Shown here piece after piece: positions 16,418 to 63,657 of a DNA stretch of 64,000 bases. Under the pieces are notes generated by a model. It was not told the DNA's origin, searched no databases, and was given only the letters and a program-made list of their open reading frames with translations. How positions within the stretch are numbered: the first letter of the stretch is position 1; each line of letters opens with the position of its first letter. The position numbers were made by a program, and so were the translations under genes. Location: the NCBI GenBank assembly GCA_019744845.1, contig JAIETW010000001.1, positions 80,299-144,298 of the forward strand, written 5' to 3'. The stretch comes from Patescibacteria group bacterium. GTDB lineage: Bacteria; Patescibacteriota; Minisyncoccia; Phycocordibacterales; Phycocordibacteraceae.

Positions 16418-16426
16418 TCTAATACA

Positions 16427-18072: not shown

Positions 18073-18098
18073 GCAATCTAATTAGATGAGTAAGTTTA

Positions 18099-33195: not shown

Positions 33196-33196
<1 letters not shown>
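32948..33196 (-). CDS. atpC: F-type ATP synthase epsilon subunit, N-terminal beta-sandwich domain only (82 aa)
   Basis: LTVARVGENIFDGEAVSVTLPGSEGVFTVLAGHEPFVSELKEG matches epsilon. It is last in the atp operon. The C-terminal helical hairpin is absent. Confidence 0.8.
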
Positions 33197-35497
<2,301 letters not shown>

Positions 35498-35505
35498 GGT
35501 AGTGT

Positions 35506-37059: not shown

Positions 37060-37083
37060 AGTGCTTGTAAAAGTAGTAATAAG

Positions 37084-37452: not shown

Positions 37453-37454
37453 AG

Positions 37455-37901: not shown

Positions 37902-37911
37902 AGAAGGTTAC

Positions 37912-38160
<249 letters not shown>

Positions 38161-38198
38161 TTATAATTGCTCCATCCCGGAGCCGCATGGAGAAAAGG

Positions 38199-39062: not shown

Positions 39063-39833
39063 CTATACCGAAGCTACAGACCATCCTAGACGTCCCACGA
39101 CCCTCTCGGCAATTGACTGAAGATGATTGTAATGTGGTGCCATTTTGATCTTTGTAAATAAAAAGTGAGCAACCTTTACCTTGTCATATTTAATTGGTGA
39201 GCGTGCCATCAAGTCGTGTACGAGATCTTCATACCGTGATGAAGAGGTATCATTTTCACCCACTCCAAGGGCGAGGGTGTAGAGCATAAGCTGCGCAACT
39301 TCAAGTTCCTTACCGAACTCACCGAGCTTCAAGTCAAAATCAATGTGAACCACTCCCTTGTCCGCATCAATCAAAATATTGTCCGGCCAACGATCGCCGT
39401 AGACGATTCCTTGTGAATGCGCATTCGCCAGATCCATGAATAACTCCTGTATACGAGGAGTCGCTTCCTCCAAAGAAGCCTTTCGCAGAAAGAGCGTCAT
39501 CGTTTCCGAGTTCTCAAGGTATGGAAATACAACACTTCCATCCTCAAGTAGAGCAGGTTCAAGTACTCTGAGTTGTTTTTGAAAGGCATCTTTACCAAAC
39601 TGCACACGTTCTTCCGTAGTGCGAGGGGCCATCTGATCTACTTCGTATCCCCACTGACTACAGTTAAATTCTATGACTTCTCTCGTCTGATCCTTATCCT
39701 GGAGTACTTCCCGAAGCATCAGCACACCATCGGGAGCACGCCACACATAGAGATTCTTAAGCTTGCCACTAAGCGTATGGCGCGGCTCTGGTGTATGTCC
39801 TGGCAGAAGTTTCTCTGGGTTTACGTCCGACAT
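39063..39833 (-). CDS. Protein-kinase-like fold protein (APH/RIO/Kdo-kinase type)
   Basis: IVYGDRWPDNILIDADKGVVHIDFDL resembles the kinase catalytic loop (HGDxxxxN) and the DFG-like motif (DFD). The start was set at the internal Met (MSDVNPEK...). The longest ORF extends to 40001 and would overlap the divergent gene. Confidence 0.45.
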   Translation of the reverse strand: MSDVNPEKLLPGHTPEPRHTLSGKLKNLYVWRAPDGVLMLREVLQDKDQTREVIEFNCSQWGYEVDQMAPRTTEERVQFGKDAFQKQLRVLEPALLEDGSVVFPYLENSETMTLFLRKASLEEATPRIQELFMDLANAHSQGIVYGDRWPDNILIDADKGVVHIDFDLKLGEFGKELEVAQLMLYTLALGVGENDTSSSRYEDLVHDLMARSPIKYDKVKVAHFLFTKIKMAPHYNHLQSIAERVVGRLGWSVASV

Positions 39834-39858
39834 TAGAGATAACTGTATACTATTCCTT

Positions 39859-40659
39859 ATGGAATTAACAACGCGCGCAGCGATAGATATTGCGACCGAG
39901 GCAGGCCGAATGCTCAAAGAGATGGGGTATGTTCCCCATGATTCTTCACGGAAAGAAGCTCTTGTGCATGCCGATATCGTCACGGCCCACGATATTGCCA
40001 TAGAGACTTATATTCTGAATGAGATTCGTACCCGATTCCCTACGCACGCCATCTTGTCGGAAGAAACACAGAGTACGACCGACCCTAAGACTTCTCCTCA
40101 TGTATGGATTGTGGATCCCATAGACGGAACTATTTCCTTTGCCAGCGGACTTCCGTTGTACTCAGTCTCCATTTCGTATTTTGAGAATCAGAAACCAAGG
40201 TCATCCGCCCTCTATCTCGCGTCCACCAATGAAGTGCTCTGGTGTGAGACTGGCGGTGGTGCATACGTGGGAGATACAAACATTCACGTGCGGGATCTCC
40301 CTCCAGAAGAAGCAGTTATCGCTCTAGATCATGGAGTAAGAACCAGAGAAATAACCATGAAGGAACTTGCACCCAATATTTCTCTCGGGATTCGCGCACT
40401 TCTTATGACACCTGGAGAAGCGGGCAATATTGGTCTTGTGGCACGAGGAAATATCCAAGGACTCCTTTGCTCCCATCCTCAAGTTTGGGACTTCGCCGCA
40501 GGCATGCACATTGCGCTTGAGGCAGGCGCCGTCGTCACCGACTATGCAGGAAATGCATACGATGACTGGTTCGCACGAAAGGGACACATCATCTGCACAA
40601 AGAGTGTGCTTCCCTATCTTCTCTCACACACAAAGAAGGTCGCGCATCACTACACTTAG
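39859..40659 (+). CDS. Inositol monophosphatase family protein (SuhB/CysQ-like)
   Basis: WIVDPIDGTISF (the DPIDGT motif) and the downstream WDFAAG motif. The start was set at the internal Met (MELTTRAAIDIA...). The longest ORF starts at 39763. Confidence 0.75.
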   Translation: MELTTRAAIDIATEAGRMLKEMGYVPHDSSRKEALVHADIVTAHDIAIETYILNEIRTRFPTHAILSEETQSTTDPKTSPHVWIVDPIDGTISFASGLPLYSVSISYFENQKPRSSALYLASTNEVLWCETGGGAYVGDTNIHVRDLPPEEAVIALDHGVRTREITMKELAPNISLGIRALLMTPGEAGNIGLVARGNIQGLLCSHPQVWDFAAGMHIALEAGAVVTDYAGNAYDDWFARKGHIICTKSVLPYLLSHTKKVAHHYT

Positions 40660-42080
40660 GTGAGGTGAATGATCGGCTTGATAGGCATCTCCACTTCTCC
40701 ACGAGCAGTCTTCACTGTCTTGGTGAGGAGTCCATTACTTTGGAGCCACTGTTCAATGTCTTTGGCTCCTGCCTCATCAAGTGAAATGTCATAGAGACCA
40801 GAGTACGAAAGATAGGAATCAATAATATTCACACGTTCCGTCACAAAATACTCAAGAAGAGCTAGTGCTGAAAACTCCGCATGGGGTGCACCTCCGTACG
40901 GGAATCGCTCACGATATCGTGTAGATGCTGCTGGGTGAGGAGCAAGTTCAGACACTTCTGCAGTCCACCATATAAGCGTGCCACGATCTTTCACATATGG
41001 TTCTAGAATTTCTTTTGGAATAGGGACGGTCGGCATCACCACCTCTGCCTGCGATGAATTGAAGTGTGCCATGACCGCAGACGGCAATGCACTCATGTCC
41101 ACGCCATCCGTACACAACGTCTGTACATGCTCTGGAGAAATAGTTCTAATGCTCTCAAGTTTATCATCGTATTTACCGACAACGAGTATCCGTGCATCTG
41201 GTGCATGCACTTGAAGAAACGCCACCGTATTGAGCGCACTTGAACCATCCCCAAATATCAAGACGGTCTGGGGTTTCTCTCCGCTGTGTAGCATCGTACC
41301 AAATGCATCAAAAACACATCCCAGGGGCTCAACGAGTGTGAGCAATTTTCCTCGGGTACGAATATCGGTTTCCACAAATGCACTGAGATTCTTGGGGACC
41401 GGCGTGAGACCAGAGAGAGGGACACGAATCGTACCTGCCACTGCGGTGCCAATAAACTCAGTATGTCCCACCGTCCCTTTTGCAAGATGTCCGCCATCCT
41501 GAGTACGATCACACTGATGTGGCCATCCCGTATCGGGATTGAGCGTATCTGCACGTGAGTGGTCACTGCATACATACGCAGGATTACGAACCGCAAGTCG
41601 TCCTGGTTCTAAATTCTCTTGAAGAGTTACGTTGATTATTTGTTTGGCAAAACCAAGCACTCCGTCAGTAAGCGCTGGGACAAACTGAAGAAGCGGAATA
41701 CGAGGCGCAGTGGGATCAAACTGTACTGCCTGTATGCGGCAGAATCCCTCATGGAACATAGAACGAAGCATTACCCTCTGTGCGTCTAGAATGTGCTCTT
41801 CAGGAATTCCTGCCTCGCGATTGCGGGCAAAGTAATACTCTTGCTTGGATAAGTTTAAAAGGTCTGTTTCAAAGCGAGAAGGAGTCTCTGGAGCTCGTCG
41901 TCCGTAGTAATAAAACTCACTCGCACAGGCTCCTGCTTGGATCTGAGTCACCTCAGCATATCCCTGGGGAATCTGTTCGTCGTACACAAGGGCACCTTCT
42001 GTACACGTGACATGCGGAATGCCGCTCTCATCTGCATCCGCATGTAAATATCTCACTGCTTCTCGTTTGGCTTGAGACAT
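40656..42080 (-). CDS. MDR-superfamily (zinc-type alcohol dehydrogenase-like) protein with a roughly 170-aa N-terminal extension
   Basis: GHTEFIGTAVAG (GHE-type motif), EPLGCVFDAF and a Rossmann segment TVLIFGDGSSALNTVAFLQVH...ILVVG. The start was set at the MSQAKRE Met so it does not overlap tRNA-Ala. The longest ORF ends at 42107. Confidence 0.45.
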   Translation of the reverse strand: MSQAKREAVRYLHADADESGIPHVTCTEGALVYDEQIPQGYAEVTQIQAGACASEFYYYGRRAPETPSRFETDLLNLSKQEYYFARNREAGIPEEHILDAQRVMLRSMFHEGFCRIQAVQFDPTAPRIPLLQFVPALTDGVLGFAKQIINVTLQENLEPGRLAVRNPAYVCSDHSRADTLNPDTGWPHQCDRTQDGGHLAKGTVGHTEFIGTAVAGTIRVPLSGLTPVPKNLSAFVETDIRTRGKLLTLVEPLGCVFDAFGTMLHSGEKPQTVLIFGDGSSALNTVAFLQVHAPDARILVVGKYDDKLESIRTISPEHVQTLCTDGVDMSALPSAVMAHFNSSQAEVVMPTVPIPKEILEPYVKDRGTLIWWTAEVSELAPHPAASTRYRERFPYGGAPHAEFSALALLEYFVTERVNIIDSYLSYSGLYDISLDEAGAKDIEQWLQSNGLLTKTVKTARGEVEMPIKPIIHLT

Positions 42081-42096
42081 GCGTGGGGGTGAAGAT

Positions 42097-42172
42097 TGGT
42101 GGACCATACCGGACTCGAACCGGTCACCTCATCCATGCCATGGATGCGCTCTACCAGATGAGCTAATGGCCC
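42097..42172 (-). tRNA. tRNA-Ala (anticodon GGC); CCA encoded
   Basis: The reverse complement GGGCCATTAGCTCATCTGGTAGAGCGCATCCATGGCATGGATGAGGTGACCGGTTCGAGTCCGGTATGGTCCACCA folds as a cloverleaf. G3:U70 and A73 are Ala identity elements. Anticodon loop ATGGCAT. Confidence 0.85.
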
Positions 42173-49703: not shown

Positions 49704-51485
49704 TTATTGCTCATTTTTACGTTCAAACAGAAGATCATCAGGAAGACGGAACAATCCTTCATCATTCTCTTTCTGCTCCATAAAGTGCGCAATGAAGCCC
49801 ACTGCGCGAGGAATCACAAAGAGTGCATTAAAGAACTCTGCATCAATGAGCTCCTGAATCTCCTTCTCGCCGTATCCTTCGCATTCAATAAGAATGTCTT
49901 GCATAAGAGCTGCAATGACGCCGTCTACGTTAAGAATCAAAGATCCGTTCTTACCCGTCGTTACCTTCTCAATTGAGCGTGCAAAGTCGTAGTGCGGGTG
50001 GGTCTGGAGTAACTCTGCAAAAGATGAAAGCGCAGCCACACGAGGATCAGGAATACCCACACGATACTTACGATGCCCAATACCAGAGATTACCTTTCCT
50101 CCCTTCGTTGCTGACTCCACAAAATCAGCTGCAGATTGACCAGAGGCAAGTCCTGCGCGCCAGGTGCGTGCCGCTTCATTAATAGCACCCCCAAAACGTG
50201 GACCAATGGTAAGGAGTCCTGAAGTGAGCGAGGACACGAGATCTTTTCCTGCACGTGCCGTCACCATCGTATTCACGGCACCAGAGACATGTCCTCCGTG
50301 ATCAATCAGGAGCGTAAAGATTGCTTCCGCAAATGCCTTCGTAACAGGAGATGAGGCAGGCTTTCCGAGGAGCGCAGCAATGACCGCGCTTCCGAACGGA
50401 CCTTCCTGTGCAACGAGCTTTCCACCCTCTACAAAGACGGGGACGGATTCAAGATCAGTCACGTGACGAGTAGAGAGAATGCTTTTCTGGCGAGTCATAA
50501 GTGGTTGTATATCGCTCATCGTATCACTGAAATCATTCCCCGGAAGGGTCTTCAACGCTTCAAGAAACTCTGGGAAGGTGTCGGGCGCAATCACACCAAC
50601 TCCTCTGAGTGCTTCACGTTTTGCACGTGCGCTCTCATCTTTATGCGCCACCAATGCCTTGGCGTGCCCAAACTGCATGTGTTCATCAAATGCTTCGTCC
50701 ACGATGCCTGCAATGTATGCAACGACGGGCTTGGTAAGCTTCTTCTCTTTTATCATCTCCACAATTTCATACTCATCTACCCCACCAAGCTCTCCGAAGT
50801 ACACCACACCCTTTGTGGCAGAATCTGTCTCTGCCAAAGAAAGCACATCACCAAGTGAAGAGACAGGGAATCTGTCTCCGCCGATACAGTATGAGAAGGA
50901 AAGTCGCTTCCCCGCGTTTGCGACCGCACGGATGAGCTCGCTTGTCATACCACCTGAGGTCGCGACGACTGCAACAGAGCCAGGAGTTGCAAGCTTACTT
51001 GCTTCTATCTGCATTGGATCTACTCCCCCAATGGCGCCAAGCTTCAAGTGTCCTGGCACAAGAATGCCGACACCTGATGGTCCTGCCACAAGCTTCCTTC
51101 CTCCGTACTTTTCTATAAGCGTGGTTGCATGCACTTCTGGTACGTTTTCCGCAAAAAGATGTGCCCCAAGTGCGTCTGGGAACGCGTCAAAGAATGCAGT
51201 CGTCGTCTCGTATGCCCTGCGTCCTGATTGCGCATTAAACAAGAACCGCACCTGTGATTTTAAAGAATCAGGCAGGGAAGTGAAATTCGGATAGCAGGGG
51301 ATAAGAATCTCCTTTGTTCCAAAGAAATACTTCTGTGCCTTACGTGCCCCAGTGATAATTGCAAGCACTGAACGCTTCTGTCCTGAGAGATAATCAAAAT
51401 CCAAGATGGACTGCACAATCCCTGGATGGTTTCCAGCCACTACTATGCCCCGCTCGCCTTTTCGTATGAGATCAAGAGTACTCAT
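49704..51485 (-). CDS. aclA: ATP-citrate lyase alpha/large subunit (CoA-binding, CoA-ligase and citrate-synthase-like citryl-CoA lyase domains)
   Basis: GIVQSILDFDY...KEILIPCYPNF. Phospho-His loop MQFGHAKAL. The 23-residue block ARAGKDLVSSLTSGLLTIGPRFGGA is nearly identical to eukaryotic ACLY. Length 593 aa. Confidence 0.85.
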   Translation of the reverse strand: MSTLDLIRKGERGIVVAGNHPGIVQSILDFDYLSGQKRSVLAIITGARKAQKYFFGTKEILIPCYPNFTSLPDSLKSQVRFLFNAQSGRRAYETTTAFFDAFPDALGAHLFAENVPEVHATTLIEKYGGRKLVAGPSGVGILVPGHLKLGAIGGVDPMQIEASKLATPGSVAVVATSGGMTSELIRAVANAGKRLSFSYCIGGDRFPVSSLGDVLSLAETDSATKGVVYFGELGGVDEYEIVEMIKEKKLTKPVVAYIAGIVDEAFDEHMQFGHAKALVAHKDESARAKREALRGVGVIAPDTFPEFLEALKTLPGNDFSDTMSDIQPLMTRQKSILSTRHVTDLESVPVFVEGGKLVAQEGPFGSAVIAALLGKPASSPVTKAFAEAIFTLLIDHGGHVSGAVNTMVTARAGKDLVSSLTSGLLTIGPRFGGAINEAARTWRAGLASGQSAADFVESATKGGKVISGIGHRKYRVGIPDPRVAALSSFAELLQTHPHYDFARSIEKVTTGKNGSLILNVDGVIAALMQDILIECEGYGEKEIQELIDAEFFNALFVIPRAVGFIAHFMEQKENDEGLFRLPDDLLFERKNEQ

Positions 51486-52630
51486 GGTGCAACAAAGTGA
51501 ATGGCATCGTCTACCGCGCTTGTAATAACGGCATCTGAGCCATGTACTGACCCAAGAAGCGCCTCTGTCTCTAGAAACGCTTTCATGTCTGTAAGTCCCT
51601 TCGCCTCATTTGGTCCTCCACGACGAATAAAGATCTTTACTCCTTGTGTCCTAAGTTCATGAGCTACTTCAGAAAGTGCATCTCTAATACCCGCGAAGGT
51701 TTTTGCCACATCCGTAAAATTTGCGACCCCTCCTGCAATCACGAGCGCCTTCTTCTTTGCCGTAGACGAGAGCATCAGTGCGAGTACTTCTTTCGCATAA
51801 AGATAGGTTTCTTCGCGTGTTGGTCCCCCACTATATTCTCCGTAGTTTCCTATCGCCTCTCCTTGCCCTTGAAGTGCGGCCTCGTCAGCAATGACGATGG
51901 AACCTCCTCCCCCCGAAAGAAGAAAGAACAGCGAACCGTTTTCATTCAGTACTGAAAGTTTCAATGACGCTGGCGTCGTCTTCTGAAGTGTCGCCACTTT
52001 CTCCTCTGCCTCGTGTGCACTGCGACCTTCTACGACATCATCCTCCGTCCATGCACCACGCACAAAGAATTCTCCGGCACTGTCTACCAACACCGCTGCA
52101 TCAAGAAGGTGTACCTGACTTCCGAGGATGACGAGTGGATTGATCTCAAGAAATGCGAAGTGCATCTTTGAGAACGTCTCAAGAAGGTGCGCAAGGAATG
52201 ATTCAGGGATTCCAGTCTTCTCTGCAATCTCTTTAAGAGAGGTGTCGCTACTAATTATATAGCTTTGCACCTTTTCTGGATGTTCTTCAATCTCTATGCC
52301 TCCTTCTTTTGCATGCAGAAGGCGAATCCCGTCACGTACTCGCTCAAGAGAGAGATACTGCTCTTCAGAGCTCTCATGTGGAAGAAAAGGTTCAGCAATA
52401 AAGCGGGTAAAACCCTTCTGGCTCCATTCTGATAGTGCAGGGGGAATCTCTCTCGAAGAGACTTTCACCTTTACCAATCCCTGCTTCATGCGCTTCTTCA
52501 CTCCCTGATCCACTTTCACCACCCAGGTACCCTCTGCTGTAGTATCGCCGACACCTAGAGCCACGCCTGTATATGCATCCCCAAGGATGAGGCTCTTTGC
52601 TTTATGTTCGGTAAGTTTGACGCGTGGCAT
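51482..52630 (-). CDS. aclB: ATP-citrate lyase beta/small subunit (ATP-grasp, SCS-beta-like)
   Basis: EINPLVILGSQVHLLDAAVLVD, ANYGEYSGGPTREETYLYAKEVLALM, IAGGVANFTDVAKTFAGI and IFIRRGGPN align block-for-block with the ACLY N-terminal half. Overlaps aclA by 4 nt. Confidence 0.85.
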   Translation of the reverse strand: MPRVKLTEHKAKSLILGDAYTGVALGVGDTTAEGTWVVKVDQGVKKRMKQGLVKVKVSSREIPPALSEWSQKGFTRFIAEPFLPHESSEEQYLSLERVRDGIRLLHAKEGGIEIEEHPEKVQSYIISSDTSLKEIAEKTGIPESFLAHLLETFSKMHFAFLEINPLVILGSQVHLLDAAVLVDSAGEFFVRGAWTEDDVVEGRSAHEAEEKVATLQKTTPASLKLSVLNENGSLFFLLSGGGGSIVIADEAALQGQGEAIGNYGEYSGGPTREETYLYAKEVLALMLSSTAKKKALVIAGGVANFTDVAKTFAGIRDALSEVAHELRTQGVKIFIRRGGPNEAKGLTDMKAFLETEALLGSVHGSDAVITSAVDDAIHFVAP

Positions 52631-53275: not shown

Positions 53276-55336
53276 TTAACGTTTCCTCCTGCCTTTCTTA
53301 CCCCGCTCCTTGGGATCCGCCTTCCCTTCAAGCACGTATATCTCATCACGGATGACCGCCGCAGTCTCAAAGTCTAGTGCCTCTACGGCATCAGCCATCT
53401 GCTGCCTCTTATCGGCAATAAACGACTTCGGATCCTCCTTATAGAGCTGTGCATCAAGCGTGAGCATGTCTTCCACTGTCCGCTGGTGTTCGGTACGCAT
53501 AGACGCCGCAATGTCCCTGATCTCTTTGCGGATGGTCGCAGGGGTAATGTTGTGCTCCTTGTTGTAGGCAAGCTGAATGTCACGACGACGATTGGTTTCC
53601 CCAATGGCACGTTCCAGAGAACCGGTCATAACGTCTGCATAGAGAATCACCCGTCCAAGCACGTTACGCGCCGCGCGTCCGATGGTTTGAATGAGGGAGG
53701 TCTCACTGCGAAGGAATCCTTCCTTATCGGCATCAAGAATACCGACAAGCTCCACCTCAGGAAGATCAAGGCCTTCACGAAGCAGGTTCACTCCCACCAA
53801 AATATCAAACTCCCCTTTACGGAAATCAGTAAGAATCTGAATACGGTCAATGGTCTTAATGTCACTATGCAGGTACTCCGCCTTGATCTTGCGCTCGCGA
53901 AGGAACTCAGAAAGATCTTCTGCCATTTGTTTGGTAAGCGTCGTCGCAAGTGCACGTCCCCCACGCTTAATGACAATCTCTGACTCCTCTATAAAGTCAG
54001 CGACCTGGCCACGGAAGGCTCCCGTCTCTACGATAGGACGCACGACAAGTTCTGGATCCACAAGACCAGTCGGACGAATGATTTGCTCCACAATCTGACC
54101 CTCTGGCGCCACACTATGCTGCCGCTCGTAGGTACTTGGGGTCGCAGAAGTGTAGATCACCTGACCGACACGCGTCGCAAACTCGTCAAAAGTAAGCGGA
54201 CGGTTATCACGTGCTGAAGGAAGTCGGAAGCCGTGTTCAATAAGCGTATCCTTGCGAGAACGATCTCCCGCAAACATGCCTCCAATCTGTGGCACGGTAA
54301 CGTGCGACTCATCAATAATGGTAAGGAAGTCTGCACTCCCATCCTTTTTGTGCGGGAAATAAGAGAGGAGCGTATGGGGTGGCTCTCCAGGGGCACGACC
54401 ATCAAAGTGCCGTGAGTAGTTTTCAATACCCGTGGTGTAGCCAAGCTCACGAATAAGCGCGATGTCATGGAGCGTGCGACGCTTAATACGCTCTGCTTCA
54501 AGCAACTTCTCTTCTCGCTTAAACTTCTCCACCTGTTCATCAAGCTCACGACGAATATCCTCAAGAGCTCTCGTTCGCTCCTCCTCGTTACTCACGAAGT
54601 GTTTAGCAGGGAAGACAAACAGCGTTTCCACTTCTCCAGTCTTTGCGCGAGAAATAGGATCAAGACACTCAATACGTGCGATAACAGAGCCGTCAAAGGT
54701 GACTCGGTAGATAGCACGTTCGTTGACCGGCATGAGCTCAATCGCGTTCCCCACTGCGCGAATTTCTCCTGGATTAAGATCCGCATTGGTGCGCTCAAAA
54801 TAAATACCAACAAACTTACGTATAAGTGCAGAGCGGTTTTCCTCTGCCCCACGTGCAAGCTTCACATGCACCTTCTCGTATTCTTCAGGAGATCCAAGAC
54901 CGTAGATGGCAGACACTGAGGCAACGATAATGACATCCTTACGAGTCAGAAGTGCCTGGGTAGCCGCATGCCGAAGGCGATCAATTTCTGCATTGATCTG
55001 TGCTTCTTTCTCAATATACGTATCTGAGTGTGCGATATACGCCTCAGGCTGATAGTAGTCGTAGTAAGAAACGAAGTAGTGTACCGCATTCTTTGGAAAG
55101 AATTCTTTATATTCCTGGGCGAGCTGGGCAGCGAGGGTCTTATTGTGTGCGAGTACCAGTGTGGGCTTGTCGTTCGCTGCAATCACATTGGCAGCCGTAT
55201 AGGTCTTTCCGGTACCTGTAGCACCAAGAAGTGTCTGGTGCGCATAGCCTTTCTTAAGGCCTGCAATGAGGCCTTCTATAGCCTTAGGTTGATCACCTGC
55301 GGCAGGAAATGGAGTATGTAGTTTGAAGTTAGGCAT
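53276..55336 (-). CDS. uvrB: Excinuclease ABC subunit B
   Basis: GATGTGKTYT Walker A, DESH helicase motifs and a C-terminal UVR domain (ADAVEALDFETAAVIRDEI). The start was set at MPNFKLHTPF; the longest ORF starts at 55381 and would overlap tgt. Confidence 0.92.
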   Translation of the reverse strand: MPNFKLHTPFPAAGDQPKAIEGLIAGLKKGYAHQTLLGATGTGKTYTAANVIAANDKPTLVLAHNKTLAAQLAQEYKEFFPKNAVHYFVSYYDYYQPEAYIAHSDTYIEKEAQINAEIDRLRHAATQALLTRKDVIIVASVSAIYGLGSPEEYEKVHVKLARGAEENRSALIRKFVGIYFERTNADLNPGEIRAVGNAIELMPVNERAIYRVTFDGSVIARIECLDPISRAKTGEVETLFVFPAKHFVSNEEERTRALEDIRRELDEQVEKFKREEKLLEAERIKRRTLHDIALIRELGYTTGIENYSRHFDGRAPGEPPHTLLSYFPHKKDGSADFLTIIDESHVTVPQIGGMFAGDRSRKDTLIEHGFRLPSARDNRPLTFDEFATRVGQVIYTSATPSTYERQHSVAPEGQIVEQIIRPTGLVDPELVVRPIVETGAFRGQVADFIEESEIVIKRGGRALATTLTKQMAEDLSEFLRERKIKAEYLHSDIKTIDRIQILTDFRKGEFDILVGVNLLREGLDLPEVELVGILDADKEGFLRSETSLIQTIGRAARNVLGRVILYADVMTGSLERAIGETNRRRDIQLAYNKEHNITPATIRKEIRDIAASMRTEHQRTVEDMLTLDAQLYKEDPKSFIADKRQQMADAVEALDFETAAVIRDEIYVLEGKADPKERGKKGRRKR

Positions 55337-56543
55337 AGTAGTCCCGTATGAAGTTTTCCCTATACTCTCCGAACGTACCATGAAGAAGGGCTTCGCGCGC
55401 GCCGTCTACAAGTCTAAGAATAAAACCAAGGTTATGGGTGGAGGCAATGATTTGCCCAAGCATTTCGCCTGAGCGAAGAAGATGCGAGACATACGCACGA
55501 GTAAACGGCTCAGTACCAGGAATGATGGTCTCTGGATCAAGTGGAGCAAACTCTGTTCTATACTTCTCACTCTTAAGATGTATATTCCCACGACGAGTGT
55601 AGATAGTCCCATGGCGCCCCATCCGGGTTGCCGCAACACAATCAAAAAGATCCATACCTTCTGCAATACCAGTAAGCACGTCTCCTGGCTCTCCAATGCC
55701 GAGGAAATGCCGCGGTTTCTCTTCCGGAAGTTCAGGGATCGCAGCCTGAAGGGCGCCTGCCATATCTTCCTTACTAAATGATCCTCCAATACCAAATCCG
55801 TCAAAGTCCATAGACGCGATCTCTTTTGCACTTTCACGCCTCAAATCTTCGTGACGACCTCCCTGCACAATGCCAAAAATTCCCTGACGCCTATTCGCTT
55901 CAAGATTCTGACGATGTGCACGAAGCGAGCGCTCTGCCCAACGGTGCGTGCGATGCATTGCATCCTTCTGATACTCATAGGACGCAGTAGGGGAGGTGCA
56001 CTCATCAAACGCAAAGAACATATCTGCGCCAAGTGCATGTTGAATTTCTACCGATCGTTCTGGTGTGAACCGATGGAGCGAGCCATCAATGTGTGAAGTG
56101 AAGCTCACCCCCTCGTCATCTATGATCGCAAGTTGTCCATGCTGGGTCTGCACCTCTGGGTCATAGACCGCAACCACATCTCCTGCACTCTCCTCACCTT
56201 TTGCAATTTTAGTAATAGTACGACCATACGCAGCACCAAGAGAAAACACTTGGAACCCTCCGGAATCGGTCATGGTAGGCCCGTTCCATCCCATAAAAGT
56301 ACCGAGGCCACCCGCCTGCTCTACTATCTCCTCACCTGGCTGGAGGTATAGGTGGTAGGTGTTCCCAAGCACCACCTGAGCACCCAGGTGTGCGAGTGTT
56401 TCTGGAAGAACGCCCTTCACATTTGCCTTGGTACCGACAGGGACAAATGCAGGGGTTTGAATATCTCCATGCGCTGTATGAAGCACGCCCGTGCGGGCGC
56501 GTTCGTGTTTCTTTTCAAGAGTAAAGCCAATAGCGCCCTCCAT
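55329..56543 (-). CDS. tgt: Queuine tRNA-ribosyltransferase (tRNA-guanine transglycosylase)
   Basis: TPAFVPVGT, VLGNTYHL and TDSGGFQVFSL blocks, plus zinc-site Cys/His near the C-terminus. Length 404 aa. Confidence 0.88.
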   Translation of the reverse strand: MEGAIGFTLEKKHERARTGVLHTAHGDIQTPAFVPVGTKANVKGVLPETLAHLGAQVVLGNTYHLYLQPGEEIVEQAGGLGTFMGWNGPTMTDSGGFQVFSLGAAYGRTITKIAKGEESAGDVVAVYDPEVQTQHGQLAIIDDEGVSFTSHIDGSLHRFTPERSVEIQHALGADMFFAFDECTSPTASYEYQKDAMHRTHRWAERSLRAHRQNLEANRRQGIFGIVQGGRHEDLRRESAKEIASMDFDGFGIGGSFSKEDMAGALQAAIPELPEEKPRHFLGIGEPGDVLTGIAEGMDLFDCVAATRMGRHGTIYTRRGNIHLKSEKYRTEFAPLDPETIIPGTEPFTRAYVSHLLRSGEMLGQIIASTHNLGFILRLVDGAREALLHGTFGEYRENFIRDYYA

Positions 56544-56583
56544 GACTCACACGATACTACACCACTTACAGAGACACGAATCT

Positions 56584-58173
56584 TTACGCAATACTGTTCT
56601 TGAGACGCTCTAGTTTCTTACGCAGCTCTTTAAAGACTTTGCGACGGTTTGGGTTTTTCTCTTGTCGCTCAAGATCGCGAATGTGCGAAGGAAGTTTACG
56701 CACCACCTCAAATATCTTCTCATCACCCTTAAATTTATACGTGAAGATATCTTTTGCTATTTCTGCAAGCTCTCTCTTTGAAAGCGTTTTATCCATATTC
56801 TTTACCTTTCCCTCATCTACAATGAGACCCACACCAGCAAAGAGAATGTCTTCAATCATGTTCTCCATATCGGTCGTTTCTGGAGTCTTGAGACGAAGTT
56901 GCTCCATCTGGGACAAAAATGCATTACGTCTCTTTTCGTGGGTTCCTGCGTAGAACGGCGCGCCCTTGGACATTATTTCTCCAATTGCATCTGCAAAACT
57001 GTCATGTGCCTTTATGACATTGAGGTTTGGTAGAGGTTTTTCCTCACCCCCTTCTCCCTTTGCGCGTTCCTCTAGCCTCTTCTTGGTTTCTTCTTTCTTA
57101 CGTCTATCTTCGTCACGCTTGGCTCCCTGTTCAATTCGTTTCAACAGTTCCTTCTCAGGCATAGAATCTAGATAAGCTCTCATGCCTGGCTCCTTAGGAT
57201 CATAGGTACCAGGAGGCACACCATCAGACTTTTCAAGGATAGGAAGGAGGACATCGTCTGAATGAGGCCATATGCGTTTAAACTCTGCCATGTATTCTGC
57301 TTGCAAAGCAGAGAATTTCACGCCGACGCGTACAATGTCTTTAAGAACCTCCATGATACGCTCTCTTCCGCCTTCAGTAGAAGGATGAAACTTCTTGGGA
57401 TCTTTTGATACACCACTCTCGTATCTGTGGGCGGAGGTGAGATCATCGTAGAGTGCAATCAATTGATTCTTTTCAATCTTGAGTGCGGTAAGTTCAGACT
57501 GGAGCTGTTCTCTGCGTTTTTCTTTTTTGTTCTTATCTTCAGGAGACTCAAGTTCACGCCAGAGCTCAACAAGCGGTGCTCCGATTTCCTCAATAAATGC
57601 CTCTTCCATCTCAGAAACTCTTTCTGGGTTTGTGCCAGTGAGTCGCTCAGACTCTATCGTCTCAAGTGCGCTTGTGGCTTTGGAAATAAGTTCAGCAATC
57701 TTAGGCCAATTTTTGTTTTCACGAATCCACTGACGTAGCGCATGACGCTCTTCTTCAGAGAAGTCCTTAAGTGCGAGATCAAGCGCCGCATCTACACGCT
57801 CCAGACTCTTCTCTGCAGTCTTGGCCTTTTCCTCTACCTCAGGATCTTCTGTTGGTTCACCTTCTCTTGGTGAAATTTCTATGCGCACTGGAGTCTCAAT
57901 GAGCTGTACGTCTTCTTTTGAGACCACCTCATAAAGACGACCGTCCTCAAGCTCCATAACTGGTGGAGTCTTACCTTGTGCCTCCCACACATCAAGCGGA
58001 ATTTCACGAAGGACCATGCTGTCCCTATCTTCAATACGCCCGACCATTGGTGCAGTAATGTCACGACCGCTAATTGGCTGCTTCCAGTCAAGAAGTAGAG
58101 TACGTCCAGTTCGCCCGTCCGTATACTTTTTTGGTTGCTCTGGAAGAGGAGGTTCGCGATCAAGAGCGGACAT
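56584..58173 (-). CDS. Hypothetical highly charged (Glu/Lys/Arg-rich) coiled-coil protein. It has a roughly 110-aa N-terminal globular region and no recognisable domain.
   Basis: 529 aa with long predicted helical charged stretches and no TM segment. It is separated by a 5-nt gap from the FKBP gene upstream on the same strand. Confidence 0.45.
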   Translation of the reverse strand: MSALDREPPLPEQPKKYTDGRTGRTLLLDWKQPISGRDITAPMVGRIEDRDSMVLREIPLDVWEAQGKTPPVMELEDGRLYEVVSKEDVQLIETPVRIEISPREGEPTEDPEVEEKAKTAEKSLERVDAALDLALKDFSEEERHALRQWIRENKNWPKIAELISKATSALETIESERLTGTNPERVSEMEEAFIEEIGAPLVELWRELESPEDKNKKEKRREQLQSELTALKIEKNQLIALYDDLTSAHRYESGVSKDPKKFHPSTEGGRERIMEVLKDIVRVGVKFSALQAEYMAEFKRIWPHSDDVLLPILEKSDGVPPGTYDPKEPGMRAYLDSMPEKELLKRIEQGAKRDEDRRKKEETKKRLEERAKGEGGEEKPLPNLNVIKAHDSFADAIGEIMSKGAPFYAGTHEKRRNAFLSQMEQLRLKTPETTDMENMIEDILFAGVGLIVDEGKVKNMDKTLSKRELAEIAKDIFTYKFKGDEKIFEVVRKLPSHIRDLERQEKNPNRRKVFKELRKKLERLKNSIA

Positions 58174-58178
58174 AGGTA

Positions 58179-58637
58179 TTAGTTTGCGACGTCTACAAGC
58201 TCAATTTCAAAGATAAGGGTAGACCCTCCAGGAATTGGTCCGTAGTCGTTCATACCGTAGCCAAGCTCAGGTGGTACGGAAAGCACGCGGCGACCACCTT
58301 CCTTCATACCGACAACGCCCTGATCCCAACCTGGGATAACGGCTCCTGCACCAAGAACGAAGCTGAATGGACCTCCGTGATTTGCAGATGCATCAAAGAC
58401 AGAGCCGTCTTCAAAACGCCCAACATAGTTCACGCTAATGGTGTCTCCGGCCTTTGCTTCAGCTCCGGTGCCGACGACGGCGTCAGAAATAAGAAGAGTT
58501 GGCTGGCTGTTGTTCTCAAGCGGCATAGTGAGGTCCTGATTAGTTGAAAAGAGATTAAAGAAGGTAGGCCCGAAGAACAAGAAAATCATGGCGACTGCAA
58601 CCGCGAGAGCGACTGCAATACCGGTAGTGGTGTTCAT
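58179..58637 (-). CDS. FKBP-type peptidyl-prolyl cis-trans isomerase, membrane-anchored
   Basis: N-terminal TM helix, then the FKBP domain (GDTISVNYVGRFEDGSVFDAS...GWDQGVVGMKEGGRRVLSVPPELGYG...LIFEIELVDV). Confidence 0.85.
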   Translation of the reverse strand: MNTTTGIAVALAVAVAMIFLFFGPTFFNLFSTNQDLTMPLENNSQPTLLISDAVVGTGAEAKAGDTISVNYVGRFEDGSVFDASANHGGPFSFVLGAGAVIPGWDQGVVGMKEGGRRVLSVPPELGYGMNDYGPIPGGSTLIFEIELVDVAN

Positions 58638-58782
58638 AGATACGAAGAAGTCTTAAGGGATATACAAGCACTAGTATAGCCCTTTATTCGCGAACCATCG
58701 CAGGGTGGCTGGGGACTTCATGAATCCCTGTCTTCCCTACTGTTTTTATTATTATCGGACGGTACTAAGCAACTGTCAAGTC

Positions 58783-61527
58783 TTAAAGAGATAAGTACCG
58801 CTTCCGGATGGCGCCTTCTACCGTTGCGCGATCACGACCATAGGTAAGGTATGAAAGTTCACGAAGATCATCCACCTGATCCAAGTTCCCCTTTGCGAGA
58901 TCACGAGTCTTAATGTTAAACGGCTTCTGCGGCACGCCGTTTGCAAGCAAGCGAATATACGCATTGCGGTTCTCAATATTCACGAAATCAAGCGCAGAGA
59001 ACACCGGTGCAAATTGTTTTGCAAAGAACTCGCCATCTTCCTCACCCACACGGAAGATCGCCATAGAACCGACGTTACCAAACACTGCATCACGAATATT
59101 CTCATCTACCTGCTTCAAGAACTGGTGCGCGATAGTCAATGAAAGCTTGTACTTACGAGCCTCAGAGAGAATGCCTGGAATAGACTTGGTCGTAATGTTC
59201 TGGAACTCGTCAATGTAGAGATAGAACGGTGGGAAATCACCACGAGGATTATCTGCGCGTCCAAGGGCGGACATAAAGAGCTTGCCGACAATGATAAGAC
59301 CGAGGAGGTTTGCGTTACGTTCACCAAGACGACCCTTAGAAAGGTTCACCAGGAGAATCTTTCGGTTATCCATGATTTCCCGGAAGTTAAAGGAAGATTC
59401 CTGCTGACCCATAATTGGACGCATGAAGTCGTTCGCAATAAATTCATCAAACTTGTTGGTGATGTACGGCACAATGTTCTGGAGTGAGGCCTCACCTTCT
59501 GCCTTGGTGGCAATCTCTTCCCAGAACTGATTCACGACCATGTTATTGCTCTTCGCGAGCTTACGGTAGCGGAACTCTGAGTTAGAGAGCACACGAGAAA
59601 TATCAAGCATGGTAGAGCCTGACTCTGGATCCTCCATCACGAGCTGAGTCGCGTTACGGAAGTACTGTTCAAAGGCAGGGCCCATAGATTCCGGCACATC
59701 TCCATAGAGCTGACGGAAGATCATAAGAAGTTCGTTCACAATGAAGGACTTCTGCTCAGGACGCTGTGGATCGTACTCAAGCATGTTCAAACCAAACGGA
59801 CGATCAATGTATGCTGGATCAAAGTAGATCACGTCGTTGTAACGCTCTGGTGGGACAGTCGCAAGCACCTCAAGAATGTCGTTACCGTGTGGGTCAATGA
59901 AACAGACACCCTCACCATTCTTAATGTCTTGCTCTATAAGCGTACGCAAGAATCCGGTCTTACCAGTACCAGTCTGACCGATCACATAGAGGTGGCGGAG
60001 ACGATCCTGCGTATCCATGAACACCTCGCTCTTCGTACCTCTAAAGATGTTAGAACCAAGATGGATTCCCTTCTGTGGAAGCCCAACAGGTGCGGCTGCG
60101 GCAGTGAAGCGAGACTGCTTCAAGTGTGGTGAGGAATCAATTCCCTTTGGTGGGAAGTGATACATGGTCGTAAGCTCACGCAGTGAGAGCGGCATCGTAT
60201 TCTCGTGTGAGAACAAACGGAAAGAGAAATCACGGAAGTGCTTTTTTTCTTTTCCTCCCTTCATACGCTTCCACTCCACTCGGTTCCCCTGGGTCGCTTC
60301 AAACTGGTTAAAGGACGATTCCAGTTCCCCAAGCACCTGGTTGGCTTTAATAGGATCTGGAGACGAAACCACAATACGCATAGTGGTATCAACAACGGGA
60401 GCCGCAATCTTTGCCTCCACTGACTTTACGGTCGCCTCTTCAATGTTTTCCCTGTTTGGCTTCAGGTCAAAGATCGCTCCTTCAATATCATGCACAAACT
60501 CTCCCATAAGGTTCTCGGGGAGCGAGAGCGCACGCATGCGCGGCATACCACGACGAAGCTCGTACAAGATACGACGGAAGTGCTTCACATACTTATCTCC
60601 TCGGGGCTTAATAATCACCTGAAGTGAGGCGCCCTCTCCTTCGTTCTCAATCTTCGCGAATGCGTTCAATATTGAGTTGAGTGGATCGTAATCAAATTCT
60701 GAGTAGTCCTTAAGTGCAAGCGCAGGCTTGTCTGCAAGTGTCGCAACTGATCCCACCGCAACACCGTCCTGTGCAAATACGTTGTAATCGTTTGGCTGCA
60801 CCGTAATGACTGCGTTCGGGAAGATAGCGAGAATCTGTTTTTCAAAAAGAGAGGTCTTGCTCTTTGGAATAGCGGCATAGAACTGAAGATGTGGATCATC
60901 TACAGGAACTGAAAGTTCAAGAGAGAAGTATGGAGGCTCTCCTGCATACGTAGATTCTACCGACATCATTCCTGAGTAGAACTGCTCCATTGAAGAAATG
61001 ACTTCTTTAAGCTGTTTGTTACGAGTCTCCGCCTTATCTGCATCTTCAGCGTTCGGTTCTGGAAGAGAGATCTCATACAGCGTCATTTGGAGCGCTTTCC
61101 ACTCTGGCTGGTTTTCTCCAAGACCGCGAATACGCATGCCCGCGAGGAGATATGCGACAAGGAAACGATGGAAGTCGTCCTCTAGGTGCGGATTCTTAAG
61201 CTTCTCAAGAATAGAGAGTGCGTTATGGATACCCCTGGTTTCCATAATCCCGCGAAGCTCAAGCATCGTCGCGTCATCACTCTCGGGGTCTAGATTGAGT
61301 GCAATATCCTGCATCTCAGACTCCGACATACGAAATTCAGGATGGAGCACCTCTTCAGCAGGAGTCTGCTTGTGATGAATGATGCGCTCATGGATGATCT
61401 CAGCACGAGAAGATCCCTGCTTCAGCGCCTCAAGCTCACGTTCCTTTGCCTCTACTTGTGCGCGTAGGTGTTCAAGCTCCTCTTCGTGTGAGGATATGGG
61501 GTGATGTCCTTCCACATTCTGTGGCAT
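58783..61527 (-). CDS. Large P-loop NTPase of the TraG/TraD/VirD4-VirB4 (T4SS-type DNA-translocation ATPase) class. It has no TM segment. The ATPase module of about 400 aa is preceded by a unique soluble region of about 500 aa.
   Basis: Walker A VIGQTGTGKTGFLRTL followed by CFIDPHGND. Walker B-like FYLYIDEFQN. C-terminal SLTIAHQFLKQV...VFGNVGSMAIFRVG matches T4CP/VirB4 motifs. Length 914 aa. Confidence 0.55.
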   Translation of the reverse strand: MPQNVEGHHPISSHEEELEHLRAQVEAKERELEALKQGSSRAEIIHERIIHHKQTPAEEVLHPEFRMSESEMQDIALNLDPESDDATMLELRGIMETRGIHNALSILEKLKNPHLEDDFHRFLVAYLLAGMRIRGLGENQPEWKALQMTLYEISLPEPNAEDADKAETRNKQLKEVISSMEQFYSGMMSVESTYAGEPPYFSLELSVPVDDPHLQFYAAIPKSKTSLFEKQILAIFPNAVITVQPNDYNVFAQDGVAVGSVATLADKPALALKDYSEFDYDPLNSILNAFAKIENEGEGASLQVIIKPRGDKYVKHFRRILYELRRGMPRMRALSLPENLMGEFVHDIEGAIFDLKPNRENIEEATVKSVEAKIAAPVVDTTMRIVVSSPDPIKANQVLGELESSFNQFEATQGNRVEWKRMKGGKEKKHFRDFSFRLFSHENTMPLSLRELTTMYHFPPKGIDSSPHLKQSRFTAAAAPVGLPQKGIHLGSNIFRGTKSEVFMDTQDRLRHLYVIGQTGTGKTGFLRTLIEQDIKNGEGVCFIDPHGNDILEVLATVPPERYNDVIYFDPAYIDRPFGLNMLEYDPQRPEQKSFIVNELLMIFRQLYGDVPESMGPAFEQYFRNATQLVMEDPESGSTMLDISRVLSNSEFRYRKLAKSNNMVVNQFWEEIATKAEGEASLQNIVPYITNKFDEFIANDFMRPIMGQQESSFNFREIMDNRKILLVNLSKGRLGERNANLLGLIIVGKLFMSALGRADNPRGDFPPFYLYIDEFQNITTKSIPGILSEARKYKLSLTIAHQFLKQVDENIRDAVFGNVGSMAIFRVGEEDGEFFAKQFAPVFSALDFVNIENRNAYIRLLANGVPQKPFNIKTRDLAKGNLDQVDDLRELSYLTYGRDRATVEGAIRKRYLSL

Positions 61528-61593
61528 ATAGCCTTAAGTATAACAGCACCACGCCCGTGAAAGAGCGTGGTGCTGTAGAAAAGAACCTGTAAT

Positions 61594-61920
61594 TTACTTC
61601 CTGACCCCGAAGAGTGCGGTAATCAAGGAAAGGATGATCGCAAAGAAGAGCGCGGACCAGAATCCTGCAACCGCAAACCCAGGCACAATAGCACTCGCGA
61701 GCATGATGAGAAGCGCGTTCACCACCAAGGAGAAAAGACCAAGGGTGATGATGTTAATCGGAAGCGTGAGGATCGTAATGATCGGCTTCACGAACACATT
61801 AATAAGCGCGAGGACAACAGCAAGCACAATTGAGCCAAGGAGTGTCACCTCTACGCCCGGAATAAGATAGGCAGCGAGAAGAATCGCAATTGCCGTGACA
61901 AGCCAGTGTATGAAGTTCAT
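61594..61920 (-). CDS. DUF360 (phage-holin-4_2-like) 4-TM membrane protein
   Basis: WLVTAIAILLAAYLIPGVEV...ALINVFVKPIITILTLPINIITLGLFSLVVNALLIMLAS matches the DUF360 consensus. Length 108 aa. Confidence 0.6.
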   Translation of the reverse strand: MNFIHWLVTAIAILLAAYLIPGVEVTLLGSIVLAVVLALINVFVKPIITILTLPINIITLGLFSLVVNALLIMLASAIVPGFAVAGFWSALFFAIILSLITALFGVRK

Positions 61921-61975
61921 GTAGTTCAGTTAAAGCCTAGTAACACCTCACAGCATACTCTCTTCACGTGATGAC

Positions 61976-62878
61976 TTAATGAAGAAGGGTGTACAAGAGC
62001 GCCATACGCACATAGAGACCATTTCGTGCCTGCTCAAAGTACCGAGCGTGTGGGGACGCATCTACCTCCGGTTCAATCTCATCTACACGAGGAAGTGGGT
62101 GCATGATGATTGCTTCTTCCTTCATACGATCAGCCACCTCACGGGTAATAACGTAACGACCCTTAAACTTCAGGTACTCATCCTTGCTTGGGAAGCGCTC
62201 CTTCTGAATACGGGTCTGATAGATCACATCTGCGTCTTTGAGTACGGACTCCATATCCTCGGTTTCGCTAAAGGAAATTCCCTTCTCGGTAAGGTGGTCT
62301 TTGATATCTGAAGCCATACCAAGTTCGCTTGGCGCCACAAAGGTAATCTTCACTCCTGGATACTTTGAGAGCATGTATACAAAGGAGCGTACGGTGCGTC
62401 CGTTCTTAAGATCGCCTACAAATGCCACGTGCTTCCCTGATACTTCTCCAAACTCCTTACGCACCGTATACAAATCAAGAAGTGCCTGTGTTGGGTGCTG
62501 ACCAATACCATCTCCTGCGTTCACGACTGGAACTTCAGAGGCTAGAGCCGCCTTGGCCGCAGATCCCACTTCTGGATGACGAATGACAATGACATCTGCA
62601 TAACCATTGATCACACGGATCGTATCCTCAAGCGTCTCTCCTTTTGCTGCAGAAGAAAACTCTCCTGCGTTCTCCGTACCAATGACCGCACCTCCTAGCT
62701 TCACCATCGCGGATTCAAACGAAAGACGAGTACGCGTGGATGGCTCATAGAAAAGACTTGCCATGGTCTTCCCGGAAAGTGCCGTTGGTTCAGGAGACTC
62801 CTGTAAACGATCCGCAAGCGTAAAAAGAGTTTCAAGTGACTCCTGATCAAACTGCTGTGTTTCTACGACGTGCTTCAT
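61976..62878 (-). CDS. pyrB: Aspartate carbamoyltransferase catalytic subunit
   Basis: STRTR motif (YEPSTRTRLSFE), HPTQALLD-like HPLP... blocks. Length 300 aa. Confidence 0.88.
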   Translation of the reverse strand: MKHVVETQQFDQESLETLFTLADRLQESPEPTALSGKTMASLFYEPSTRTRLSFESAMVKLGGAVIGTENAGEFSSAAKGETLEDTIRVINGYADVIVIRHPEVGSAAKAALASEVPVVNAGDGIGQHPTQALLDLYTVRKEFGEVSGKHVAFVGDLKNGRTVRSFVYMLSKYPGVKITFVAPSELGMASDIKDHLTEKGISFSETEDMESVLKDADVIYQTRIQKERFPSKDEYLKFKGRYVITREVADRMKEEAIIMHPLPRVDEIEPEVDASPHARYFEQARNGLYVRMALLYTLLH

Positions 62879-63657
62879 ACGCGGTATTGGTTAATCTCAT
62901 CACGGAGCTCCTGTGCAGCCTTCTTTGGATCTTCTGCAAAGATGATGCCCCGAGAGGAGGAGATAATGAGGTTACTGCCTCCTGCTTCAACGACAGCCTT
63001 CACATCTCCACCCTGTGCGCCGACACCAGGAACCAAGAAAGTCATCTCTGGTGCGACTTCGCGTACCTTCTGCATCTCCTCTGGATAGGTGGCGCCTACT
63101 ACAAGCATACAGTTTCCATTCTCATTCCACTCTCCTGCTACCTTTCGTGCGACAGTGAGCCAGAGCGGGCTTCCATCTGCGACAAGATCCTGCAGTTCTC
63201 CAGCACCAGGGTTAGAGGTACGACAAAGCACAATGCTTGTCTTATCTTTGCGTGCGAGAAATGGAGCGAGCGCTTCTTTACCAAGATATGGATGGAGCGT
63301 GACCGCATCTGCGCCAAGCCAGTTAAAGCTCATGGTTACGTATCCTTCGTTCGTATTCCCAATGTCTGCACGCTTTGCATCAAGAATGGTGAAGTGTGAA
63401 GGATACTTCTCCTTTAGATAGTCAAAGACCATCTTGAGCTCCTTCATTCCCTCTTCCCCGCGTGCTTCAAAAAATGCACTGTTTGGTTTGTATGCCGCGA
63501 CATACTCTGCAGTCTCATCAATGATCCACTGACAGAAGGAGAGCTGTGGGAGTGCGTCTGCCTTAAAACGTTCAGGTAGTTTATTGAAATCAGCGTCAAG
63601 CCCAACGCACACGAGCGTGTTTCCTTCCTTTACTCGTGCGTCGTATTTCGTATTCAT
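62875..63657 (-). CDS. pyrF: Orotidine-5'-phosphate decarboxylase (long/type-2 form)
   Basis: LVCVGLDAD...ILDAKRADIGNT blocks. Length 260 aa. Overlaps pyrB by 4 nt. Confidence 0.8.
   Translation of the reverse strand: MNTKYDARVKEGNTLVCVGLDADFNKLPERFKADALPQLSFCQWIIDETAEYVAAYKPNSAFFEARGEEGMKELKMVFDYLKEKYPSHFTILDAKRADIGNTNEGYVTMSFNWLGADAVTLHPYLGKEALAPFLARKDKTSIVLCRTSNPGAGELQDLVADGSPLWLTVARKVAGEWNENGNCMLVVGATYPEEMQKVREVAPEMTFLVPGVGAQGGDVKAVVEAGGSNLIISSSRGIIFAEDPKKAAQELRDEINQYRV

Follow-up and report, generated by a model that had tools for sequence, protein, structure and literature searches.

A stand-alone VirB4/VirD4-like ATPase of the DUF8128 family encoded among housekeeping genes on a patescibacterial chromosome

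The closest described relatives of the gene considered here are the ATPases of type IV secretion systems (T4SS), above all the VirD4-type coupling proteins (type IV coupling proteins, T4CP), for which we draw on two reports. A survey of 2,918 Patescibacteria genomes counted 5,713 VirD4-type T4CP homologues, only 148 of them near virB4. The patescibacterial VirB4 proteins form a separate clade, are clustered with virB3/virB6/virB8/trsD near dnaA, and were counted apart from the T4CP homologues (Quinonero-Coronel et al. 2025, PMC12102498). The essential T4SS cluster of Ca. Southlakia epibionticum is described as having no recognisable coupling and relaxase proteins; two ATPases encoded elsewhere, SEML1_0142 and SEML1_0293, show TraG-D_C/TrwB_AAD/DUF87 signals, with a P-loop domain starting near residue 360-380 (Wang et al. 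2023, PMC10633639). We analysed a 64-kb stretch of patescibacterial DNA (contig JAIETW010000001.1; hereafter the window), where a reading of the letters alone, the original prediction, had placed a TraG/VirB4-like ATPase within a four-gene module at 56584-61920. The ATPase gene adds one member to a large family that earlier work has recorded as orphan T4CP homologues of Patescibacteria. Our addition is that DUF8128, the domain in the N-terminal half of the protein, is predicted by structural modelling to fold like the N-terminal domain of VirB4. This would give these ATPases a hybrid VirB4/VirD4 architecture.

The gene occupies 58783-61527 on the minus strand and encodes a stand-alone VirB4/VirD4-like ATPase (DUF8128 plus DUF87/TraG-D_C) of 914 amino acids (aa) without a transmembrane (TM) helix. 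The precomputed Pfam annotation of an identical protein (P0001) lists PF26449 (DUF8128) and PF01935, and PF26449 is annotated in all of the best 120 of the 1,222 homologues found; these 120 are all from Patescibacteria and align to 99-100% of the query with 67-100% identity. The roughly 500 aa in front of the motor, thought in the original prediction to hold no recognisable domain, thus carry a Pfam domain and, in addition, give a clear structural match. Structure modelling and a Foldseek search, proposed there for exactly this part, returned the VirB4 N-terminal-domain fold. Modelled alone, residues 135-485 reached a predicted local distance difference test score (pLDDT) of 92.3 and a predicted template modelling score (pTM) of 0.90, and all 14 Foldseek matches of this model at E<=1e-3 were TrwK/VirB4 chains. 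Because a VirB4 structure comprising only the C-terminal domain is missing from the match lists, as are other P-loop ATPases, it is the N-terminal domain of VirB4 that is matched. The DUF8128 domain, an alpha/beta fold of this type, spans residues ~145-470 (60118-61095, minus strand). The models thereby show a VirB4-like two-domain build, in which a VirB4-type N-domain comes first and the P-loop motor, a RecA-like ATPase domain, makes up the C-terminal part; in Pfam terms, PF26449 precedes the PF01935/PF12696 region. A literature search for PF26449/DUF8128 found no papers.

The motor, a P-loop translocase domain of the VirB4/VirD4/HerA clade, extends over residues ~485-880 (58888-60075, minus strand). 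All the ATPase motifs quoted in the original prediction could be located: Walker A GQTGTGKT (residues 517-524, window 59956-59979), FIDPHG (543-548), Walker B YLYIDEF (769-775, window 59203-59223), AHQ (800-802, window 59122-59130) and VFGNVGSMAIFRVG (815-828). Both Walker motifs are intact, as expected for the P-loop nucleotide-binding domain of a coupling protein. Against Pfam, the 914-aa protein matched PF01935 (DUF87) at 2.6e-8 (34.7 bits, cut-off 23.2) and just passed the TraG-D_C threshold (9e-5, 22.8 bits, cut-off 22), while its FtsK match was sub-threshold; all three matches are short. The NCBIfam matches comprised TraD-type models and the VirD4-like CD1115 model, the latter alone spanning the whole domain. 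Over 33 diverse family members, Pfam detected DUF87 in 27, TraG-D_C in 26, TrwB_AAD_bind in 25 (best 3.3e-13), T4SS-DNA_transf in 13 (best 3e-12), and AAA_10 and FtsK in two each. A profile built from 61 family members had TrwB (3e-7) and DotL (5e-6) as top matches among PDB sequences. In the AlphaFold2 model of the ATPase on the family alignment (mean pLDDT 87.8, pTM 0.73), eight helices lie between strands 566-569 and 724-728. They form an all-helical insertion at residues ~590-722 (59362-59760, minus strand), placed where coupling proteins have their all-alpha domain. The corresponding TrwB_AAD_bind model matches the 914-aa protein itself only below threshold (E 0.017, 14.5 bits, cut-off 20.5), although 25 of the 33 relatives match it.

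By sequence profile the motor domain thus appears closest to the VirD4/TraG/TraD coupling proteins, and by modelled fold it is about equally like the C-terminal domain of VirB4, TrwB and HerA. Fold alone does not tell the VirB4 C-terminal domain from coupling proteins; it is the more specific sequence profiles that favour the coupling-protein side. FtsK scored clearly lower in the fold comparison, and the features marking FtsK/SpoIIIE members (a full motor match, a multi-TM N-terminus and a gamma domain) were not found. HerA came close behind VirB4 and TrwB and shares the DUF87 signal, so that it is set aside because of architecture and profile evidence and not because of its score: HerA models match the P-loop stretch only, the N-domain fold is VirB4-like and not a HAS-barrel, and no NurA-like neighbour was identified. 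The assignment to the TraG/VirB4-type class was therefore essentially right. A better full-length fit to FtsK, HerA or SpoIIIE, which the original prediction had named as the outcome that would overturn it, was not observed.

Set against the described systems, the protein shares its phylum and its Pfam signals with the orphan T4CP homologues of Patescibacteria, whose genes lie away from the virB4 cluster and number about two per genome (PMC12102498). The layout of the two Southlakia proteins would be compatible as well, their P-loop start leaving room for an anchor and a domain of DUF8128 size (PMC10633639). The window clade differs in having no membrane helix, and a VirB4-like N-terminal half is not described in the accessible portions of PMC12102498 and PMC10633639. 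Unlike VirD4, TrwB, TraD and DotL, the window ATPase has ~330 residues of VirB4 N-terminal-domain fold between its N-terminus and the ATPase domain, lacks TM helices and adjoining relaxase or T4SS genes, and stays far below the curated cut-offs. Unlike VirB4/TrwK, to which it is 8-13% identical, it is not matched by VirB4 hidden Markov models (HMMs), and virB3, virB6 and virB8 were found neither in the window nor in the orthologue loci; bona fide patescibacterial VirB4 forms a clade of its own (PMC12102498).

The family is large. An exhaustive search of representative sequences yielded 20,565 clusters with a threshold of E<1e-3 and 5,107 with one of E<1e-30; query residues 144-910 make up the conserved core, and a typical length is ~800 aa. 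Among 108 full-length cluster representatives, 76 (~70%) possess a single N-terminal TM helix directly before DUF8128, whereas 13 have a helical extension without TM helix as in the window protein. In the latter, the clade-specific extension takes the place of that TM helix and covers residues 1-135 (61123-61527, minus strand), with helices at 14-34, 41-54, 69-78, 84-98, 100-110 and 113-128 in the AlphaFold2 model. The claimed lack of a TM anchor agrees with the hydropathy profile (Kyte-Doolittle, 19-residue window; maximum 1.45, no TM helix), and the soluble form is a trait of a minority clade and would be derived. C-terminal tails of more than 150 aa occur in 22 of the 108 representatives. 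The largest measure 460-1,200 residues and are Pro/Ala-rich, that of P0175 being Ser/Gln/Pro-rich, and all nine long-tailed sequences retrieved terminate in 'GE[VI][YF][VI]Dxx GNVxxG'. Long-tailed relatives with a TM anchor are P0170, P0175, P0180, P0183, P0188, P0195, P0199, P0200 and P0201.

Remote two-domain homologues are found on mobile elements, at 21-24% identity and aligned from about residue 180-210 to 860-900. For the Bacillota plasmid DUF87 ATPases and gp156 of Bacillus phage G, both domains align (residues 178-901). One example is WP_144625398.1 of a B. subtilis plasmid (NZ_OX419581), annotated as 'DUF87' (BLASTP 2e-28) and, with 913 aa against 914 aa, of nearly the same length. 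Its gene lies directly upstream of a replication-relaxation-family gene, with TcpD, TcpE and a VirB4-like gene nearby. On a C. sporogenes plasmid, an 800-aa homologue directly follows a VirB2-like pilin gene, and near-identical matches exist on many C. botulinum plasmids; the gene for gp156 adjoins a 'VirB-like' gene. PHROG 5156 matches over the full length (6e-70), and a scan of IMG/VR gave almost solely relatives that have just the ATPase domain and so tell little about this family. A cluster look-up of ten relatives gave names for three, one of them informative: a relative in Burkholderiales, restricted to the C-terminal domain and labelled 'TraM recognition domain'. The plasmid and phage G homologues described above are encoded in loci of conjugation or T4SS-like type; the window gene, in contrast, belongs to the chromosomal core.

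Taking these data together, we favour, with a probability of roughly 60%, the interpretation that the ATPase is a chromosomal, vertically inherited, stand-alone T4SS-type ATPase with a T4SS-coupled function, from a family that occurs in Patescibacteria and has remote members on plasmids of other bacteria. The protein would form a hexameric ring and might be brought to the membrane by protein contacts of its N-terminal parts. It could then use ATP to feed a DNA or protein substrate into a membrane channel, thereby energising or gating transfer. The channel would most likely be the patescibacterial T4SS encoded elsewhere, whose cluster has no coupling protein. VirB4 makes contact with the inner-membrane complex through its N-terminal domain, and a VirB4-like N-domain in orphan ATPases leads to the concrete and testable hypothesis that they dock onto the T4SS. 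This matters in that Patescibacteria are host-dependent, that the T4SS is essential in the one species tested, that its cluster has no recognisable coupling ATPase, and that T4CP-like ATPases are scattered at about two per genome. The labels 'VirD4' or 'DUF87' alone would be incomplete for DUF8128 ATPases.

Several observations weigh against this interpretation. The T4CP-specific Pfam matches of the 914-aa protein itself are marginal, and it misses by a wide margin both the curated coupling-protein cut-offs (TIGR03743, 46 versus 366 bits; TIGR03754, 36.6 versus 648; NF045973, 28.6 versus 250) and that of the VirB4 model TIGR00929 (12.6 versus 643 bits). Neither the 64-kb window nor the surroundings of the orthologues examined yielded a T4SS gene, and the link between the ATPase and a T4SS is thus one of homology only. 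In Southlakia the t4cp homologue was not essential although T4SS genes were, and exaptation to another role was considered possible (PMC12102498). The gene is conserved as strongly as tgt and lies inside housekeeping operons, which would likewise agree with a housekeeping function that has nothing to do with secretion. Finally, only five loci with ~50%-identical orthologues had usable flanks in the synteny comparison described below.

Several of these points would also suit an exaptation to a housekeeping task independent of any T4SS, in which the ATPase might, for instance, associate with the membrane and translocate or remodel DNA during chromosome handling, repair or DNA uptake of these reduced cells. 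We regard this as a real alternative, albeit an unlikely one. FtsK fits clearly worse than VirB4 or TrwB and its gamma domain is missing; there is neither a HAS-barrel nor a NurA partner as with HerA, and the N-domain is VirB4-specific. The neighbouring genes, moreover, vary between clades, and genomic context therefore gives no hint of function.

Similarly doubtful is a divergent VirB4 proper, that is, an ATPase assembling or energising the T4SS and docking through its VirB4-like N-domain under a membrane complex of the VirB3/VirB6/VirB8 type. The modelled N-domain is what such a protein would need; the sequence models, in contrast, point elsewhere, as TIGR00929 is missed, CagE_TrbE_VirB gave no Pfam match to the 914-aa protein, AAA_10 reaches only two of the 33 family members and coupling-protein models match most of them. 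In addition, the patescibacterial VirB4 is a distinct clade with its own virB3/virB6/virB8/trsD cluster near dnaA, the T4CP homologues being tallied separately (PMC12102498), and the B. subtilis plasmid has a VirB4-like gene in addition to its DUF8128-type gene, the latter lying beside a gene of a relaxase family.

More speculatively, and with little probability in our view, DUF8128 ATPases may represent a third lineage of T4SS ATPases, combining a VirB4-type N-domain with a VirD4-type motor, sometimes with an anchor and a giant disordered tail of their own, and supplying the coupling ATPase that is missing from the essential T4SS of Patescibacteria. Adjacent fast-evolving charged proteins would then be substrates or adaptors. 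Candidates for these are an orphan protein of 529 aa with a net-positive C-terminus encoded in the window, the large variable and the ~100-aa acidic open reading frames (ORFs) of relatives, and the fused Pro/Ala-rich tails. The pairing is recurrent, since long disordered or fast-evolving proteins accompany the ATPase as fused tails, as the variable downstream ORF or as the orphan in the slot following the FKBP gene.

The four ORFs of the region were all present where the original prediction had placed them, and all on the minus strand. Upstream of the ATPase gene, at a distance of 66 nucleotides (nt), lies the gene of a DUF360/Phage_holin_4_2 membrane protein (61594-61920, minus strand; 108 aa). 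Its assignment was borne out by a PF04020 match (8.3e-30, 103.9 bits, cut-off 28.8, residues 3-102) and by hydrophobicity along the entire length. Downstream follows a membrane-anchored FKBP-type prolyl isomerase (58179-58637, minus strand; 152 aa), for which an FKBP_C match (4.3e-32, 110.7 bits, cut-off 21.1) and one N-terminal TM helix in the hydropathy profile likewise agree with the earlier call. The gene of the acidic E/K-rich orphan protein (56584-58173, minus strand; 529 aa) starts 5 nt past the FKBP stop. The 145 nt that separate the ATPase stop from the FKBP start contain a sigma-70-like promoter match, TTGACA-17-GATAAT (58751-58779, minus strand), a consensus match only. It agrees at 11 of 12 positions, and no other promoter-like site occurs in 55000-63000, shuffled sequence having a mean of 8.2 sites. 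This site, together with the spacing of 5 nt between the FKBP and 529-aa genes, suggests that these two form a transcription unit apart from the ATPase.

The original prediction had read the four genes as one module, possibly a reduced translocation or secretion apparatus, and had proposed synteny across relatives as a test. Some features speak for this: the genes of the region are co-directional with gaps of 66, 145, 5 and 40 nt, and FKBP and DUF360, both membrane proteins, could in principle tether a soluble ATPase. We scanned genomes for orthologue loci (at least 569 found, 80 kept) and searched these with the window proteins by tblastn. Nearly all kept loci carry patescibacterial titles, with a few 'bacterium' or 'uncultured bacterium' and one 'Bacillota'. 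Many metagenome-assembled genomes (MAGs) of third-party annotation are titled 'uncultured Candidatus Saccharibacteria', yet in ATPase, tgt and uvrB they share 65-86% identity with Paceibacteria/Parcubacteria MAGs; these titles and the Bacillota one (L044) are probably taxonomic mislabels.

All on one strand, the orthologue loci run from DUF360 through ATPase, gap A, FKBP and gap B to tgt and uvrB. At 60-79% ATPase identity and with enough flank, FKBP was found downstream in 47/47 loci, tgt in 42/43 and uvrB in 39/40; DUF360 lay within 10 kb upstream in 47 of 55 loci but was directly adjacent in only 17. The linkage of FKBP equals that of tgt and uvrB and thus reflects the backbone synteny of one clade. 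Beside orthologues of ~50% identity, where ample flank was available upstream in four loci and downstream in one, neither DUF360, FKBP, tgt nor uvrB was found. Identified neighbours there were ndk, an RNase J-like gene, tsaD, ruvA, a Mur ligase and a Na/H exchanger, and pheST and gyrBA border a relative of 35% identity. The linkage thus did not extend to the ~50%- and 35%-identical loci with usable flank, and no T4SS or relaxase gene was among the identified neighbours in the orthologue loci.

Gap A also separates the putative partners, as one or two unrelated genes lie between ATPase and FKBP in 47 loci. The first is a large variable A/E/P/G-rich ORF of 492-1,360 aa (for example L009:12730-15642) about 10-130 nt past the ATPase gene, in most cases within ~20 nt, and with a mid-protein TM helix in 37/48. 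Past it, 43 loci (44 by HMM search) have a conserved acidic ORF of ~100 aa with the motif 'EEQEELLLDL...VRLIERMDE...'. Pfam gave no match to either, and both are absent anywhere in the window. In at least eight loci FKBP directly follows the ATPase gene, as in the window. Anchoring of the ATPase in trans by the large downstream ORF was considered and rejected: this ORF and the ~100-aa ORF are missing from the window and at least nine loci, in eight of which FKBP comes directly after the ATPase gene, so that such anchoring is no general requirement.

Together with the promoter-like site between ATPase and FKBP and the orphan status of the 529-aa protein, these synteny data over 80 loci led us to reject the four-gene module, which we hold to be very improbable. 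The T4SS-type ATPase class of the earlier interpretation stands, and its translocation module of ATPase and neighbours does not. FKBP and DUF360 are neighbours by conserved backbone synteny, the 529-aa protein by a hypervariable insertion slot, and there is no evidence for one machine; the window therefore offers no new secretion module.

The 529-aa protein is indeed Glu/Lys-rich and charged, as had been claimed (39% D/E/K/R), with a hydropathy maximum of 1.11 and no TM helix. No family was found for it in Pfam, NCBIfam, PADLOC or PHROGs, and a search of 5.8 billion proteins returned only the protein itself. Its sole detectable relative, identified among the locus ORFs, is a 606-aa ORF of L001 (phmmer 4.5e-36, 24% identity), a locus whose ATPase is 98% identical to that of the window. 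The DNA of the two is ~85% identical on both flanks, but the similarity stops abruptly between 58148 and 56561, and only the first ~10 codons of the two genes are alike; the 529-aa gene thus fills a hypervariable slot that separates FKBP from tgt (gap B). In L003 and L004, the same slot holds unrelated-looking E/K-rich ORFs of 681-691 aa. The net charge of four slot proteins ranges from -29 to +8 (three are acidic), and that of their last 30 residues from +3 to +6. Known T4SS signals are positively charged and C-terminal, a property that these C-termini seem to resemble, a lead only from four sequences.

The window as a whole is core patescibacterial chromosome, encoding purL, purB, leuS, alaS, uvrA, uvrB, uvrC, ddl, an F-type ATP synthase, ychF, tgt, pyrB and pyrF. 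The claimed absence of T4SS, relaxase, pilin and integrase genes was confirmed by Pfam scans of 30 window ORFs (20 elsewhere plus the region's own), where only housekeeping genes appeared. An ATPase of anti-phage defence or of a mobile element (MADS Mad8-, DndH- or HerA-type), chromosomal by chance, is hardly credible here: defence genes are typically patchy and not core, all 50 loci that have enough flank and at least 60% identity (47 + 3) carry the gene at the same syntenic position, GC content is even across the window, and the surrounding 64 kb yielded neither defence partners nor an integrase nor the boundaries of a mobile element.

Some further genes of the window deserve mention. At 49704-52630 (minus strand), two adjoining genes resemble a two-subunit ATP-citrate lyase: Pfam assigned Citrate_bind and an ATP-citrate synthase ATP-grasp domain to the 382-aa product, and CoA-ligase and a citrate synthase C-terminal domain to the 593-aa product. 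By tblastn, L001, L003, L004, L009 and L018 have matches to one protein or the two at the corresponding downstream position; to our knowledge, an ATP-citrate lyase is unusual in a reduced patescibacterial genome. The segments 14136-21802, 61976-63657 and 33196-38981 comprise de novo purine genes (a purL-like gene of 978 aa, purB), pyrB- and pyrF-like genes, called by position and size with the flanking ORFs scanned, and F-type ATP synthase subunits. Such a metabolic repertoire is comparatively rich for Patescibacteria. Three minus-strand ORFs, 40656-42107 (483 aa), 22864-24219 (451 aa) and 39063-40001 (312 aa), had no Pfam match at E<=1e-5. The start of the uvrB ORF (55381) overlaps the end of the tgt ORF (55329) by 53 nt, probably because the mechanical ORF call used an alternative start codon upstream.

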